Assembly (NCBI RefSeq): GCF_000026545.1
Contig: NC_011601.1
Source: Escherichia coli O127:H6 str. E2348/69
GTDB taxonomy: Bacteria > Pseudomonadota > Gammaproteobacteria > Enterobacterales > Enterobacteriaceae
Length of the DNA: 64,000 nt
Strand: one strand, 5' to 3'
Positions within the stretch are counted from its first letter, which is position 1. Every line of letters begins with the position of its first letter. A program made the translations under genes and the position numbers. The notes below the pieces were generated by a model. The model was not told the DNA's origin. It did not search any database and saw only the letters and a program-made list of their open reading frames with translations. This document shows, one piece after another, positions 23,057 through 29,134 of the stretch.

Positions 23057-23229
23057 TTCCTCGCACGATTTCTTAGCCACCGGATATCCCACAGGTGAGC
23101 CGTGTAGTTGAAGGTTTTTACGTCAGATTCTTTCGGGATTGGCTTGCGTTTATTTCTGGAGCGTTTCGTTGGAAGGTATTTGCAGTTTTCGCAGATTATG
23201 TCGGTGATACTTCGTCGCTGTCGTCTCAT
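23053..23229 (-). CDS. ninE: NinE-like protein
   Basis: Internal-start product [23 protein letters not shown]... matches lambda NinE. Confidence 0.75.
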
Positions 23230-23753
23230 TCTGCCATCCTGACGCCCTGCCCGATCGCCATCAATGCCGCTTTGGATACGGTAGTAAACATCCGTCGAGG
23301 ACTGATGAACGGTCGCCAAATCAGCAGCATGGAGCCTTTGCTGTTTCCCTTCTTCTCCAGCCCTGTCGATGGTTCGATAAAATTAATCCGTCCATCAGTG
23401 ATAATACGAACTTCGTCGACACTCTCCAGAGCCTTGCTGAACCATCCGACTGACATATCCTCTGGCACAAGCATAACTACCGTCTGTCGCTGTTGTATGC
23501 ACTGCTCAGCGGCTTTTTCCACCCACGGCCTGATATTGCTATACGGTGGGTTATTCCAGATTGCACCGTGGCTTATCCACTCAGAATTTAGCGCGTCGTC
23601 GGCCTCAGTTAGCCAGTGAGCACACAGAGCATTTTTGTCGCTCGCTGCCGAATCCAGCCAGAATCCAAACTCAATATCCAGTGCATCAAAAAGCCAAAGC
23701 GGCGTTTGCCAGCAGTCCTTGTCGTGTGCTGGCGTATTTGATTTGATAGTCAT
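23226..23753 (-). CDS. Phage DNA N6-adenine methyltransferase (Dam-like, NPPY motif)
   Basis: NPPY catalytic motif; start trimmed to MTIKSNT at 23753, overlapping ninB stop. Confidence 0.75.
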
Positions 23754-24190
23754 GCAGCCCGATCTCCCCATCGCGCTTTCCATTCGAGAGCTAGTCGCGC
23801 TTCGTCTGACCACTTAACGCCACGCTCTGTACCGAATGCCTGTATAAGCTCTAATAGCTCCGCAAATTCGCCTACACGCATCCTGCTGGTTGACTGGCCT
23901 ATTACCACAAAGCCATTCCCGGCAAGGTTAGGAACAACATCCTGCTGCTTTAATGCTGCGGTAAACACACACTTCCAGCTTTCTGCATCCAGCCAGCGAC
24001 CATGCCATTCAACCTGACGAGAGACGTCACCTAAGCATGCCCATAGCTTCCTGTTTTGGTCTAAGCTGCGGTTGCGTTCCTGAATGGTTACTACGATTGG
24101 TTTGGTTGGGTCTGGAAGGATTTGCTGTACTGCGTGAATAGCGTTCTGCTGATGTGCCGGAGATCGAATTTCAAAGGTTAGTTTTTTCAT
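23750..24190 (-). CDS. ninB: NinB (Orf-family recombination mediator)
   Basis: Translation from MKKLTFEIRSPAHQQ... essentially identical to lambda NinB. Confidence 0.85.
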   Translation of the reverse strand: MKKLTFEIRSPAHQQNAIHAVQQILPDPTKPIVVTIQERNRSLDQNRKLWACLGDVSRQVEWHGRWLDAESWKCVFTAALKQQDVVPNLAGNGFVVIGQSTSRMRVGEFAELLELIQAFGTERGVKWSDEARLALEWKARWGDRAA

Positions 24191-24263: not shown

Positions 24264-25640
24264 TCATACGTCCGCCCCTTGTGCATATCGTCTGCCACGC
24301 GCAGCAGGTGCATTTGATGCTGTGCAAATCTGTCTGGCTTCATCCTGGTCACATGCAACAAAGTGTCCGTTGCAGAACCGCTGGTAAACCGTACCAAGCG
24401 AGCCAAAACGGTTTTTCGTCACGATGATTTCAGCAAATGGCGCGGCGCTACTGTTCTCGTCATATACCGCTTCCCGATAGAGCATGATGATTGAGTCTGC
24501 ATCCTGTTCAATGCTTCCTGAATCACGCAAATCTGCGTTTGTCGGGCGTTTGTTTGGTCGCTTCTCAACATCGCGCGAAAGCTGACTCAGGGAGATAACA
24601 GGCGTTTTCAGGTCTTTCGCCATCGCCTTCAGGCTTCCGGAGATGTGAGCAATTGCAAGGTCGTTGCGGTCTGCTTTCGGCTTCTCAATCAGGCCAAGAT
24701 AATCCGCCATGATGAGTGACAGGTTTGGATTTTCCTGTTTGTGCCGTTCTGCGATTGAGCGTATTTCTTCGACCGATAACCGCGAGGCATCGACTACCCA
24801 TACATCCAAATCTGCAAGCTGATTCATGCCGTTAGCAACGCGCGCCCAGCCTTCGTCATCCATCGATGCAGGATTTCGCAGCACGCTAACCGACATCCTC
24901 CCGGCGTTGGCAATGCTTCGCTCTGCAATCTGCAATGCGCTCATTTCCATTGAGAAAATCAATACCCCGCGCCTGACGTCAGAACCAGGAAGAACGCGGC
25001 TTGCAACGCCTTCGGCAATCTTTAGCGCCAGTTCGGTTTTCCCCATACCAGGACGAGCGGCGATTATCACCAGGTCTTCCGCGTTCATCCCTCCGGTGAT
25101 GGCGTCAAGTTCTTCGATTCCGGTCTTCAGGGTATCTGATTCCTCTCCGTTCCTCAGACGCCTGTCAAGCGTGTCAGTGTAGTCAGTAATGATTTCCCCT
25201 AACCGTACAGGTTTTACCTCGTCACGGGGCTTTCTGATGGCTGAGAGACGCTTTACAAGTTCATCCATCGCCTGACTCGATGCGTCGATGGTTCCGCTCT
25301 GAATTGGTTCACGCATTTCATCCATGATTTCCAGCACCAGACGGCGGTGATAGTTATCCGCGACCATTCCGGCATATCCCTTCAGGTTTGCGGCGCTCGG
25401 GCAGTTTTTGCTGGTCATCAGGATTGAGGTGAAATGCTCCTCTCCGCACGCCTCGGCAACCATCAGCGCGTCGATTAGGTTTCTGTTTCTCGCCTGCTTG
25501 CGGATAACCTCGAAGGCTTTCCGGTAGAGCGGAATTGAAAACGCTTCCGGCTCCAGTGTTGCCAGAACGTCGCTGGCGGTTGGAGTTAATCCACCAATCA
25601 GCAGGCCACCGATAACACTCGCTTCGATATCCTGTCTCAT
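24264..25640 (-). CDS. Replicative DNA helicase, DnaB-like (replaces lambda P)
   Basis: Walker A GMGKTE and DnaB-type C-terminal domain. Confidence 0.85.
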
Positions 25641-26584
25641 GCAATCCCCCTGTCTGCAAACTTCCCTTCCCGTACTCCCGTTAACGAATCTTCCCTCAGC
25701 AGGTAATCAAAATCTGCCGTCCAGCCAGTGTCGTTGTCTCCGAAGTAAAACGGCTTGGCCTGATGCACAAACGCCCTGACATACGCTCTGAAACCGTCCA
25801 CGTTTGGCGTTTTCAGTTGCGGGATGATTTTCTTCAGGCGGCGTTTGCGTTTCTCGTTGACCGCAACAGCGTGTGGCAGTCTGTCACCGACTTCGGTGTT
25901 GTAGGCGTTCAGGAAGGATTCGTAGTCGATTCGTTCTGCCTTGCGACGTTCAGGTTTAACCTGCCCATCGCCTCCCCCATTGGGGGGTAGGGGGGTATTA
26001 TTTATATTCTTGTTAATACCTTCTTGTTCATCATGTGCGGTTGTTTGTGCGGCTTCATGTGCGCTTTCATGTGCGGCATGTGCGCTGAAAGCCGCGCCAT
26101 TACTGGCTTCGTCATGTGCGGCATCATGTGCGGTTGTTTGTGCGGCTTCATGTGCGGGTAAATTGTCCATTTTTTGAGCATATTCATGGTAATTTGTGAT
26201 GGTGATCACACGACCTTTTTGCTTCTCTCCATCAATGGAGATCATCCCCTCTTTCACAAAAACCTGAAGCATCCGCTCAACCTGATCACGGCTTGCTGGC
26301 TTGCCATGTCTGTCGCATAACTGAAGACCTAAATCAGCTGCTGTCACAACCAGTTGACCGGGTTGCAGATGCCATTCATGACCTTTGAAATTCGCTTTGT
26401 ATGGCTTTCTGGCGGCATTCAGGAGAAGGTTTTCCCACAGGGTGCGAAGATAAACATCTTTCGCCCATGACTGTTTCAGAATGCTCCGGTACAACGGAAT
26501 GTAACCAGTTTTCTGGTTCTCCATCCTGTTGCTCCTGCGCTCGTGTGCGGCGCTGAAATCGTAGATTTTTGCTGTATTGCTCAT
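25637..26584 (-). CDS. O: Replication initiator O-like protein (iterons within coding sequence)
   Basis: N-terminus [10 protein letters not shown] similar to lambda O; internal repeated [11 protein letters not shown] peptides correspond to DNA iterons. Confidence 0.7.
26029..26158. repeat. Origin-like iteron array (two clusters of ~12-bp repeats, core catgtgcgg) with adjacent AT-rich tract
   Basis: Direct repeats tcatgtgcgg / ttgtttgtgcgg / cttcatgtgcgg seen inside the O gene; AT-rich stretch at ~25997-26027. Confidence 0.6.
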
Positions 26585-26586
26585 AA

Positions 26587-26859
26587 CTACCTGCCTTGAC
26601 GAAAGACCTTAAGAACATTGTTAAACTGACTTACGGATATGTCTTCTTTGAGCAGCTTTTCCAGAAATGCGTTTGGAATGAACGTATATCCCTCCTCTTT
26701 TGGTAGAGACGGAAGCAACGCCCTCGCCTCAGCCTTCAGAAGCTCAGTTCTGGCAACTTTCACAAAAGAGATTTGAGTTCTTTCATCAATGGAACGAAGG
26801 AAGCGCAAACGCTTAGCTTCTTTGTGTGTATCAGGTGGATTAAAGCCTTTGTTTCGCAT
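26587..26859 (-). CDS. Hypothetical protein between cII and O
   Basis: ORF track 26587..27024 trimmed to ATG at 26859 (GAGGT RBS) to avoid overlap with cII. Confidence 0.4.
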   Translation of the reverse strand: MRNKGFNPPDTHKEAKRLRFLRSIDERTQISFVKVARTELLKAEARALLPSLPKEEGYTFIPNAFLEKLLKEDISVSQFNNVLKVFRQGR

Positions 26860-26881: not shown

Positions 26882-27178
26882 TTAAAATTCCATCTGGGTT
26901 TGTTCAGAACGCTCGGTTGCCGCCGGGCGTTTTTTATTGGTGAGTCCATCAAGCGCATACTTAAAAGCCCTACTAATCGGACTGATGTCTGATGCCATTC
27001 CGAAAGCACACAAGACCGAAGCAATAAATCTCCAGTCCGTTCTGCTTATCTTCGATTCATGACAGCCAATCATCTTTGCCAGACCGCGCTGGGTAAGCGT
27101 TGACAGGTTGATGAGTAAATCTGTTTCTGCGCGATCAATTTCTCGCTGTGTTGGCTTGCTGTAACTTGCTTGTGTCAT
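26882..27178 (-). CDS. cII: cII-like transcriptional activator (mosaic: lambda-like C-terminus, divergent N-terminus)
   Basis: C-terminal LTNKKRPAATERSEQxQMEF matches lambda CII; N-terminal ~75 aa diverge. Confidence 0.7.
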   Translation of the reverse strand: MTQASYSKPTQREIDRAETDLLINLSTLTQRGLAKMIGCHESKISRTDWRFIASVLCAFGMASDISPISRAFKYALDGLTNKKRPAATERSEQTQMEF

Positions 27179-27316: not shown

Positions 27317-27526
<210 letters not shown>

Positions 27527-27614: not shown

Positions 27615-28331
<717 letters not shown>

Positions 28332-28338
28332 CACGTAA

Positions 28339-28776
28339 ATGATTAAAGAACGTATTTCTTATATCATTCCGATTGCGATGGATGAAGGCAACCCAGTAAC
28401 TCCAGTTCTTATCTATGAAATGGATAAAGACTCCCATGAAGTGGATCTATCATTTGGCGCTTTTTTTATCGGCCTTAAGGCTACAAAAAAATATTCCATA
28501 GGCATTGAGGTTTTCAATGCTCAAGAAATACCGATACCAATTGACACAAAACTGTACTCCAACCATAAGTTTTTTACGGTAGCAGAAGCCAACGATGGAG
28601 AAACCATCGTATCAACTTCTATGAGAATTAACTTCCCAAGGGTGAAAATTATCAAGCCTGGGATATTCGAAGTTAGAGCATCACTGGTTAATCCTGATAA
28701 AGGCGAAGTAATTGATGTAAAAAGTTCGTTTTTTGACGTGAAGATAACAGGATCAGTTCGCGATGAGTTTAGATAA
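28339..28776 (+). CDS. Hypothetical 145-aa protein occupying the rexA position
   Basis: ORF track; starts 8 nt after cI stop; no recognisable family. Confidence 0.6.
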   Translation: MIKERISYIIPIAMDEGNPVTPVLIYEMDKDSHEVDLSFGAFFIGLKATKKYSIGIEVFNAQEIPIPIDTKLYSNHKFFTVAEANDGETIVSTSMRINFPRVKIIKPGIFEVRASLVNPDKGEVIDVKSSFFDVKITGSVRDEFR

Positions 28777-29134
28777 CAAGGTTGCTCAGCTTCGTCCAAA
28801 TCAAAACATATCTCGCCCAATTGGACACTATTCCACTGATGATGCATACTCACGGCATGGTGGAGGAAACGGCGGAGGTAACATGCTTGAGGCTAGAGTT
28901 GCAAAGCTAGAGTCTGATGTTGAATACATCAAGCGCGATCTCGCTGAAGTAAAGTCAGATATAAAATCTGTAGATTCTCGTCTGTCAGGTATTGAGACAA
29001 GCATTAGCTCAGCAAAAATCACCATCAAGGCATCTGCGGTCGTTGTCAGTTTCGTGTTCGCATTTTGCGCCTACATTTTTGGAAGTTATGTTTCCAAAAT
29101 CCTTGATGCCTTAAACGGACTCGTTCTTAAGTAA
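28763..29134 (+). CDS. Hypothetical 123-aa membrane-anchored coiled-coil protein occupying the rexB position
   Basis: Gly-rich linker GGGNGGGN, predicted coiled coil, C-terminal hydrophobic helix AVVVSFVFAFCAYIFGSYV; start overlaps upstream stop. Confidence 0.6.
   Translation: MSLDNKVAQLRPNQNISRPIGHYSTDDAYSRHGGGNGGGNMLEARVAKLESDVEYIKRDLAEVKSDIKSVDSRLSGIETSISSAKITIKASAVVVSFVFAFCAYIFGSYVSKILDALNGLVLK

Follow-up and report, generated by a model that had tools for sequence, protein, structure and literature searches.

A probable replication origin of 12-bp direct repeats within the O-like initiator gene of a lambdoid prophage

The 64,000 nucleotides of DNA analysed here, referred to as the window, belong to a prophage region in enteropathogenic Escherichia coli O127:H6 E2348/69. 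On its minus strand lies a gene for an O-like replication initiator, a 315-aa protein of the Phage_rep_O family, and short direct repeats lie at codons ~143-186 of this gene, within the linker that follows its DNA-binding domain. Very probably, these repeats and the elements next to them (25974-26157) are the replication origin of this lambdoid prophage, the repeats serving as sites of the initiator. The features concerned are the following.

24264-25640, minus: DnaB-family replicative helicase gene of the P22 gene 12 type (Pfam DnaB_C 7.9e-78, DnaB 4.6e-13)
25637-26584, minus: O-like replication initiator gene, 315 aa (Pfam Phage_rep_O and PHROG 345)
26110-26157, minus: iteron cluster L, four 12-bp direct repeats CCGCACATGAAG CCGCACAAACAA CCGCACATGATG CCGCACATGACG, unit CCGCACAnnnnn
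26077-26109, minus: 33-bp spacer between the clusters, holding the box and the extra core copy
26090-26106, minus: central GC-rich box CCAGTAATGGCGCGGCT, inside the 33-bp spacer
26077-26085, minus: extra core copy GCGCACATG, out of phase and polymorphic
26029-26076, minus: iteron cluster R, four 12-bp direct repeats CCGCACATGAAA GCGCACATGAAG CCGCACAAACAA CCGCACATGATG
25996-26028, minus: AT-rich, purine-biased tract AACAAGAAGGTATTAACAAGAATATAAATAATA, 33 bp, presumed DNA unwinding element and recombination joint
25974-25995, minus: GC-rich right arm CCCCCCTACCCCCCAATGGGGG with a C5/G5 inverted repeat, co-inherited with the P22/HK97-type C-domain

Direct repeats inside the O-like gene

The repeats were mapped with Tandem Repeats Finder, and a second repeat-finding method agreed. 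Period-12 arrays were detected at 26031-26077 (3.9 copies) and 26112-26157 (3.8 copies), where an earlier reading of this DNA, the original prediction, had placed two clusters of ~12-bp direct repeats; the right arm lies slightly outside the range considered then. The core proposed at that time, catgtgcgg, was right in part: CATGTGCGG is exact in some plus-strand copies, others read TTTGTGCGG or CATGTGCGC, and common to them is CGCACA on the gene strand, within a repeat core CCGCACA that occurs in eight phased copies and one polymorphic extra. The motif CGCACAWR has 12 sites in the 64-kb window when both strands are counted, and 9/12 lie within one 125-bp stretch on a single strand, a clustering with a Poisson probability of ~4e-29 (from the outside rate) or ~1e-25 (from base composition). 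A second comparable cluster of CGCACA-core repeats was not found in the window. The extra copy GCGCACATG was found in some but not all of 80 related loci, is absent in Klebsiella phage Mulock and many close relatives, and shows a diversity of 0.42 at its A/T position; the conserved set comprises the eight phased copies, not the ninth.

The adjacent AT-rich tract, likewise predicted, has a GC content of 0.30 and is the least stable 31-bp duplex in the region 23-29 kb, at the 99.9th percentile of the entire window. Its sense strand is purine-biased (26/37 purines). Neither GATC nor a DnaA box (up to 1 mismatch) nor the IHF consensus was found at 25974-26160, the nearest GATC being at 26204.

As had been noted, the repeats encode an 11-residue peptide twice. 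Constraint acts on the DNA, however, and not on the peptide alone. When the same peptide was resampled with synonymous codons (phage codon usage, 20,000 trials), CGCACA arose 1.0 times on average and at most 6 times, against 9 observed copies. Third-codon positions at identical residues were 81-91% conserved in the ori-encoding linker and 52-62% in the N-domain when four relatives with 71-82% identical N-domains were compared (Fisher p 3e-5 to 3e-3). In the Yersinia phage vB_YenM_210.17 the peptide is altered (AHNTALKPAH) and CCGCAC is retained at the 12-bp phase; periodicity is thus kept in related phages, contrary to the low-complexity alternative that the original prediction had raised against itself. 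At locus L089, GCG replaces GCA as alanine codon in every copy, which changes the core to CCGCGCA and leaves the protein the same. Among 68 distinct, otherwise ~99% identical O genes from the IMG/VR database, mean diversity was 0.007 at the six core bases versus 0.039 at the inter-core bases (permutation p = 0.0005), and the AT-rich tract showed zero diversity across the 68 sequences. The IMG/VR scan yielded 491 stretches that encode a relative of the O N-domain; these are near-identical E. coli loci only, informative on population diversity and not on divergence. Because of these five independent lines, i.e. codon resampling, synonymous conservation, the phase in vB_YenM_210.17, the L089 switch and low core diversity, the repeats are read as a DNA signal, consistent with the origin iterons originally suggested.

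Initiator, recombination joint and origin function

The O-like protein is composed of an N-domain (~aa 20-135), the ori-encoding linker (~aa 140-205) and a P22/HK97-type C-domain from ~aa 197. It matches Pfam Phage_rep_O over residues 20-132 (3.2e-15, 56.9 bits) and PHROG 345 'replication initiation O-like' (1e-99). Its start is placed at Met21 by PGAP/RefSeq (26524, 295 aa) and at 26584 in phage CUS-3 (315 aa); since the 20 extra residues are kept in relatives and resemble the start of lambda O, the 315-aa form is probably the correct annotation. The O N-terminus had been described as lambda-like, which holds for the first ~8 residues, whereas the DNA-binding domain is only marginally similar to that of lambda O (32% identity over 69 residues, BLASTP E = 0.005). 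The N-domain forms a subfamily of its own within Phage_rep_O. Its closest relatives were the O proteins of Mulock (82% identity) and vB_YenM_210.17 (75%), both of which come with iterons of the same kind; for this reason the window does not pair foreign iterons with a lambda-type N-domain; its iterons go with an N-domain of their own. All fold matches of a structure model of the N-domain (pLDDT 74.8) were winged-helix DNA-binding domains, and weak, and a solved structure related to the N-domain by sequence was not found. Similarity of the N-terminal part to P22 gp18 was not significant, whereas the C-domain has 58% identity to this protein across 126 aa (E = 5e-51). No lambda P gene follows O; as predicted, the next gene encodes a DnaB-family helicase (for Pfam values see the feature list), with 90% identity to P22 gp12 and 99% identity to its HK97 counterpart; its start overlaps the stop codon of O.

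The search for homologous proteins with the N-domain returned mostly truncated or frameshifted proteins that end within the repeat region. In several frameshifted O genes (among them the database proteins P0018, P0040 and P0045) the frame changes past the A-run CAAAAAATGG to that of a 61-aa open reading frame (ORF; 26002-26187, minus), which spans the iterons, as does a 78-aa ORF on the other strand (25941-26177, plus); both ORFs are by-products of the repeats. Many database entries of the O protein are labelled 'partial' and end among the repeats, which points to breaks in the assembly or to recombination there. Two further O relatives are fusions: P0004 continues past the AT-rich tract into a protein with Pfam PF05766, and P0009 runs into an unrelated one (PF21247) once the first iteron cluster is passed.

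By its DNA matches the gene falls into two parts, which bears out the hybrid replication module of the original prediction. Positions 25637-26011 show ~96% DNA identity to HK97, HK446, mEp213 and related phages (67% to P22 gene 18), and positions 26001-26576 show 75-80% identity to Mulock and the Yersinia phage; both types of match overlap by ~10 bases, inside the AT-rich tract. Mulock and the Yersinia phage combine an N-domain and iterons of this kind with a lambda-type O C-domain, the lambda right-arm palindrome and lambda P. Locus L085 has a phage L-type C-domain joined at the same place to a window-type N-domain, and has lost one iteron cluster and the central box. The same N-domain and iterons are thus paired with three C-domains, in some cases with lambda P and in others with a DnaB-type helicase, and the AT-rich tract is always where the switch occurs. 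The right-arm element 3' of the tract is common to P22, HK97, Enterobacter phage ENT1 and a Pantoea relative; in relatives with a lambda-type C-domain, the lambda arm TCAGAGAATTCT...CCTCTGA takes the place of the GC-rich arm. Given these joins and the split DNA matches, the left half of the origin follows the N-domain and the right half the C-domain. On these comparisons, the module is a mosaic of an N-domain with iterons of one lineage and a C-domain with helicase of the P22/HK97 type; the iterons are inherited with the N-domain, the GC arm with the C-domain and the helicase or loader, and the AT-rich tract is the shared crossover zone of both halves.

With divergence of the N-domain the core varies, and the architecture (two clusters, 12- or 11-bp period, AT-rich tract) persists. 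The iteron core is GTCGAA/GACGAG in ENT1 (N-domain 47% identical) and CCGATGAAC in a Pantoea contig (48%). Lactobacillus phage phiAT3 has CAATCAAGTGT at 11 bp, in one array only.

The proposed origin function draws support from analogy in position and order with ori-lambda and the annotated P22 origin. Like ori-lambda, the elements lie inside the gene of a Phage_rep_O initiator, between its DNA-binding N-domain and its C-domain, in the order iterons, AT-rich purine-biased tract and GC-rich or palindromic arm. Unlike the four 18-bp dyad iterons of lambda, the window has eight 12-bp direct repeats in two clusters without dyad symmetry, so the predicted difference from lambda ori was found, also in comparison with P22; it has a GC-rich central box where lambda has none; its N-domain is only marginally similar to that of lambda, and it has a P22-type C-domain and right arm; and its helicase is phage-encoded, whereas lambda uses P and host DnaB. 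With the gene 18-gene 12 module of P22 and HK97, the window shares a gp18-type C-domain followed by a gp12-type helicase, as well as the AT-rich tract and the CCCCC...GGGGG arm, and the P22 rep_origin is annotated at the homologous place. Those phages, however, have lambda-like N-domains and dyad-symmetric iterons of ~20 bp, both of which are replaced in the window; the N-domains of lambda, HK97 and P22 are similar to each other, and the iterons of all three are dyad-symmetric and ~18-20 bp long.

By analogy with ori-lambda and P22, the winged-helix N-domain of O would bind the CCGCACA repeats, eight sites at 12-bp phase that flank the GC-rich box in two groups of four. O monomers may sit side by side on the 12-bp sites, an occupancy proposed because dyad symmetry is absent and the period short. 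The resulting nucleoprotein complex would strain the DNA, and the 33-bp AT-rich, purine-biased tract, bracketed by GC-rich elements, would melt. Finally, the C-domain, being of the P22 gp18/HK97 type, would recruit the phage-encoded DnaB-type helicase; since it would bring the phage's own helicase, lambda P and the loading of host DnaB would not be needed. P22 gp12 acts with host primase, and lambda-type origins also require transcription through them from pR.

Some points weigh against an origin of this kind. Duplicated repeat copies are not independent, by which the within-genome statistics are inflated, and unequal crossing-over (concerted evolution) could homogenise repeats without selection, although it would not give uniform cores with differing flanks. 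Inverted repeats of at least 4 bp are absent from both iteron clusters, whereas the same test found inverted-repeat arms of 7-8 bp in the iteron regions of lambda, HK97 and P22; as the repeats have no dyad symmetry, the lambda model of an O dimer on a palindromic iteron is not simply transferable. Structural support for the N-domain is weak, the best Foldseek match having E = 0.008.

It is conceivable, though improbable, that the repeats are O sites for autoregulation, copy control or incompatibility (compare P1 incA), or mainly a recombination joint, and that initiation occurs elsewhere. Module joints do lie here, deletions and fusions end here (the one-cluster variant L085; the fused P0004 and P0009), and according to the P1 annotation P1 iterons have control functions too. 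Yet iterons, GC box, AT-rich tract at the local stability minimum and GC arm are conserved as a unit, P22 and lambda have their origins at the homologous place, and the 64-kb window holds no second comparable cluster of CGCACA-core repeats; origin and control or joint roles are, moreover, mutually compatible. That the repeats are nothing but a low-complexity Ala/His-rich protein linker, generated by codon-level slippage and without function as DNA, is very improbable and already largely refuted: the linker is indeed repetitive and probably disordered, has its peptide encoded twice, and differs more between close relatives than the rest of the protein does (80 loci gave 57 distinct proteins), but its synonymous sites are more conserved than those of the neighbouring domain, the peptide alone predicts ~1 core copy and not 9, phase and core outlast peptide changes, the core switches synonymously in all copies, and the iteron-box-iteron layout occurs also beside other replicases where short ORFs (50-66 aa) alone span the box.

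Among known systems, Salmonella phage L (ST64T group) comes close to the window in having two clusters of short direct repeats, a nearly identical box CCAGTAATGACGCGGCT, an AT-rich tract and a palindrome, and in an O-like gene that precedes a DnaB-like helicase gene. Its iterons, TGTCCAACGGA, are of 11 bp and form two clusters of three, whereas those of the window are of 12 bp and another sequence; the O proteins are only 22.5% identical and differ in C-domain type. The phage L record annotates the repeats of gene 18 as putative origin. In the portion of PMC8022706 that deals with them, these 'six imprecise repeats' are proposed as the origin on the basis of sequence and old genetics, the closest published counterpart to the present assignment, and the central box goes unmentioned there. 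In bipartite origins of this phage L type, two clusters of 3-4 direct repeats (11-12 bp) flank a box CCAGTnnTG(G/A)CGCGGCT, with an AT-rich tract next to them. The layout is found in phage L, Mulock, Yen210, Hafnia, L089, Pantoea and ENT1, and the window origin belongs to this type; the dyad iterons and P-dependent helicase delivery of ori-lambda it does not have. O-like initiators would accordingly use at least two modes of recognition, dyad iterons and short direct repeats around a GC box.

A lambdoid origin within the initiator gene is of a textbook kind; for the iterons themselves no published description was found. If correctly assigned, the prophage origin is located and the assembly of its replication module explained, the origin consisting of two independently exchangeable halves with the AT-rich tract as common crossover point. 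This bears on the typing of replication modules of Stx and other lambdoid phages. Phages with exactly this O have been sequenced and are common (CUS-3, HF4s and about 48 Stx2a phages). In the sections of PMC8044961 that set out the 'Eru' scheme for Stx phages, a 273-aa HK97-type O together with this helicase (458 aa) constitutes replication type Eru2, classed as non-lambdoid, and nothing is said to be known yet about the proteins that replicate Eru phages. The window module resembles Eru2 as described there, but its O differs, with 315 aa. In Pfam, the HK97-type O, the window O and lambda O all belong to one family, and the window O probably carries an origin on the lambda plan.

The central GC-rich box

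The box CCAGTAATGGCGCGGCT occurs once in the window at up to 3 mismatches. It was found in all O relatives of this architecture, phage L gp18 included, and across diverged relatives its conservation exceeds that of the iterons: it is retained at 47% N-domain identity and in phage L despite the distant O protein. The origins of lambda, P22 and HK97 do not contain it. Since the box is polymorphic at several positions in the 68 close relatives (diversity up to 0.29) and reads TAG instead of TGG in CUS-3, it is not strictly required at every base.

IMG/VR, scanned with the exact pattern CCAGTNNTGRCGCGGCT, gave at least 120 matches. Among the matches listed, the box is flanked by many unrelated repeat families and adjoins at least nine replicase families (O-like, D5_N/Pox_D5, AAA_25, DUF927, Zn-ribbon primase-helicase, Toprim_3, Prim-Pol/PriCT_2, VapE-like and Rep_3). 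In the Rep_3 case, the locus corresponds to the origin region of non-mobilizable E. coli plasmids of ~110 kb. At several loci only short ORFs (50-66 aa) span the box, which is therefore probably untranslated there. Repeats on both sides (a 7-mer at least twice per side, within 100 bp) accompanied 29/90 non-redundant box contexts among the matches listed, against 1/102 for a reversed-pattern control (p = 3e-10). Conservation extends to two positions that the pattern did not include, a T that follows GGCT and an A three bases upstream. Boxes in O-like genes were found in enterobacterial phages and in two others whose hosts may be Firmicutes; of these two, the one compared with known phages lies in a low-GC locus (39%) and has weak similarities only, all to Firmicutes phages. 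In a genome-wide scan, the matches listed were mostly chance ones in GC-rich genomes and have little bearing on taxonomic range. Matches within a conserved coding motif ..KPRHDW.., which we take to be a terminase motif, were set aside as chance coding matches.

The box also has a counterpart in a plasmid origin, that of P1. The G+C-rich stretch GCCAGACGTGGCGCGGCC of P1 oriR, located between the incC iterons and the GATC heptamers, agrees with the window box at 15/17 positions (the two variable ones counted), and the polarity is the same, with iterons at the CCAG side and the AT-rich opening region at the GGC side. Unlike the window with its Phage_rep_O initiator, P1 has a RepA initiator (Rep_3 / RepA type), an intergenic origin with 19-bp iterons on one side only, and Dam-methylated GATC heptamers and DnaA boxes, of which 25974-26160 has none. 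According to Brendler, Abeles and Austin (1991), the P1 stretch reportedly lies within the essential origin core. A 2016 review states, in its passage on such G+C-rich stretches, that their role 'has remained unclear' (PMC5043065).

We tentatively propose, with confidence well short of even, that the 17-20 bp box (A)nnCCAGTnnTGGCGCGGCTT could be a sequence-specific element common to iteron origins with unrelated initiators. The breadth of replicases together with a usually constant polarity toward the AT-rich region suggests that a conserved host factor or a specific DNA structure might be involved. To a similar, limited degree we consider it possible that the box is non-specific, either a GC-rich stiff spacer (torsional barrier) or a conserved peptide (SNGAA), and owes its wide occurrence to descent or chance. 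In the relevant part of PMC5043065, G+C-rich flanks of AT-rich origin regions are said perhaps merely to favour local opening; the box polymorphism in close relatives and the CUS-3 variant fit such a role, and the exact pattern yields many chance matches, the terminase coding motif included. On the other hand, the 15-17 specified bases go beyond GC content and turn up again next to unrelated iterons and to genes of at least nine replicase families, the cover by short ORFs only at some loci is hard to fit with a peptide, and both the flanking-repeat contexts among the matches listed and the two conserved positions outside the searched pattern argue for more than a spacer.

If the sequence-specific element is real, it links the P1 plasmid origin with many phage, satellite and plasmid origins through one precise sequence, and the 30-year-old question of the function of the G+C-rich core of P1 oriR becomes directly testable. 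The box is, in short, a lead worth following, one that links lambdoid, P1-type and primase-helicase origins. No recognition of it as a family-wide motif was found in the literature, and literature text searches with iteron, peptide and box sequences returned unrelated matches only.

Other identities of the box were considered. A DnaA box or IHF consensus was ruled out by the scan of 25974-26160, as was GATC. By eye, none of several other consensuses (sigma-54 -24/-12, Fis, LexA, XerC/D, gyrase cleavage preference, Chi, CRISPR repeats) seems to fit; the GC at -12 of a sigma-54 promoter, for instance, is missing. For a hairpin in the box region (AAGCC/GGCTT and CCA/TGG arms), compensatory changes were not seen across instances, and this reading was rejected. 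Two box matches lie beside a tRNA 3' fragment, where ARAGORN calls no tRNA gene.

Several box loci have settings of their own. At four IMG/VR loci (L099, L109, L191, L203) the box lies ~60 bp from GGCGTGGCGGGGAGAGCAT, which we take to be the cohesive-end (cos) site of P2/186-like phages, with TGCAT repeats on both sides and a portal gene adjacent; the setting may be that of a packaging site and not of an origin. A Polaromonas sp. OV174 contig (L412) carries three copies of a ~55-bp unit in ~2.6 kb, each with a box and, ~20 bp on, a DnaA-box-like sequence (TTATCCACA, the consensus, in two copies and TTATCAACA in the third). At locus L103 a similar box is followed by TTATCCAC. Locus L098 (IMG/VR) has two inverted boxes ~170 bp apart, each with flanking GGTTGGACG repeats, and a VapE-like gene adjacent.

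Gene neighbourhood in the prophage

Around the O-like gene, the minus-strand genes follow the order of a lambdoid early-right operon, with ninB and then more nin genes 3' of the helicase. Besides O and the helicase gene, the region contains:

27618-28331, opposite orientation to the O operon: lambda-type cI
27317-27517, minus: cro
26882-27178, minus: cII
26587-26859, minus: 90-aa conserved ORF between cII and O, full-length member of PHROG 2519 (E = 6.6e-57), a family annotated 'unknown function'

The 90-aa ORF has no Pfam, NCBIfam or PADLOC match, is "hypothetical" in PGAP and carries no annotation in phage CUS-3; its stop lies two bases 5' of the O start codon. Two small genes on the plus strand (28339-28776 and 28763-29134) come after the lambda-type cI, presumably in the slot of lambda rexA and rexB, and could be a prophage exclusion or defence cassette. 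Neither has an above-threshold Pfam or PADLOC family; 28763-29134 gave a weak XhlA-like coiled-coil/membrane match (E = 0.0013) under the family cut-off. In the nin region, a phage N6-adenine methyltransferase gene (23226-23813, minus; Pfam Dam E = 1.2e-64) is located between ninB and ninE, and neighbouring genes for tRNA-Thr(TGT) and tRNA-Asn(GTT) lie inside the prophage at 19987-20142 (minus).

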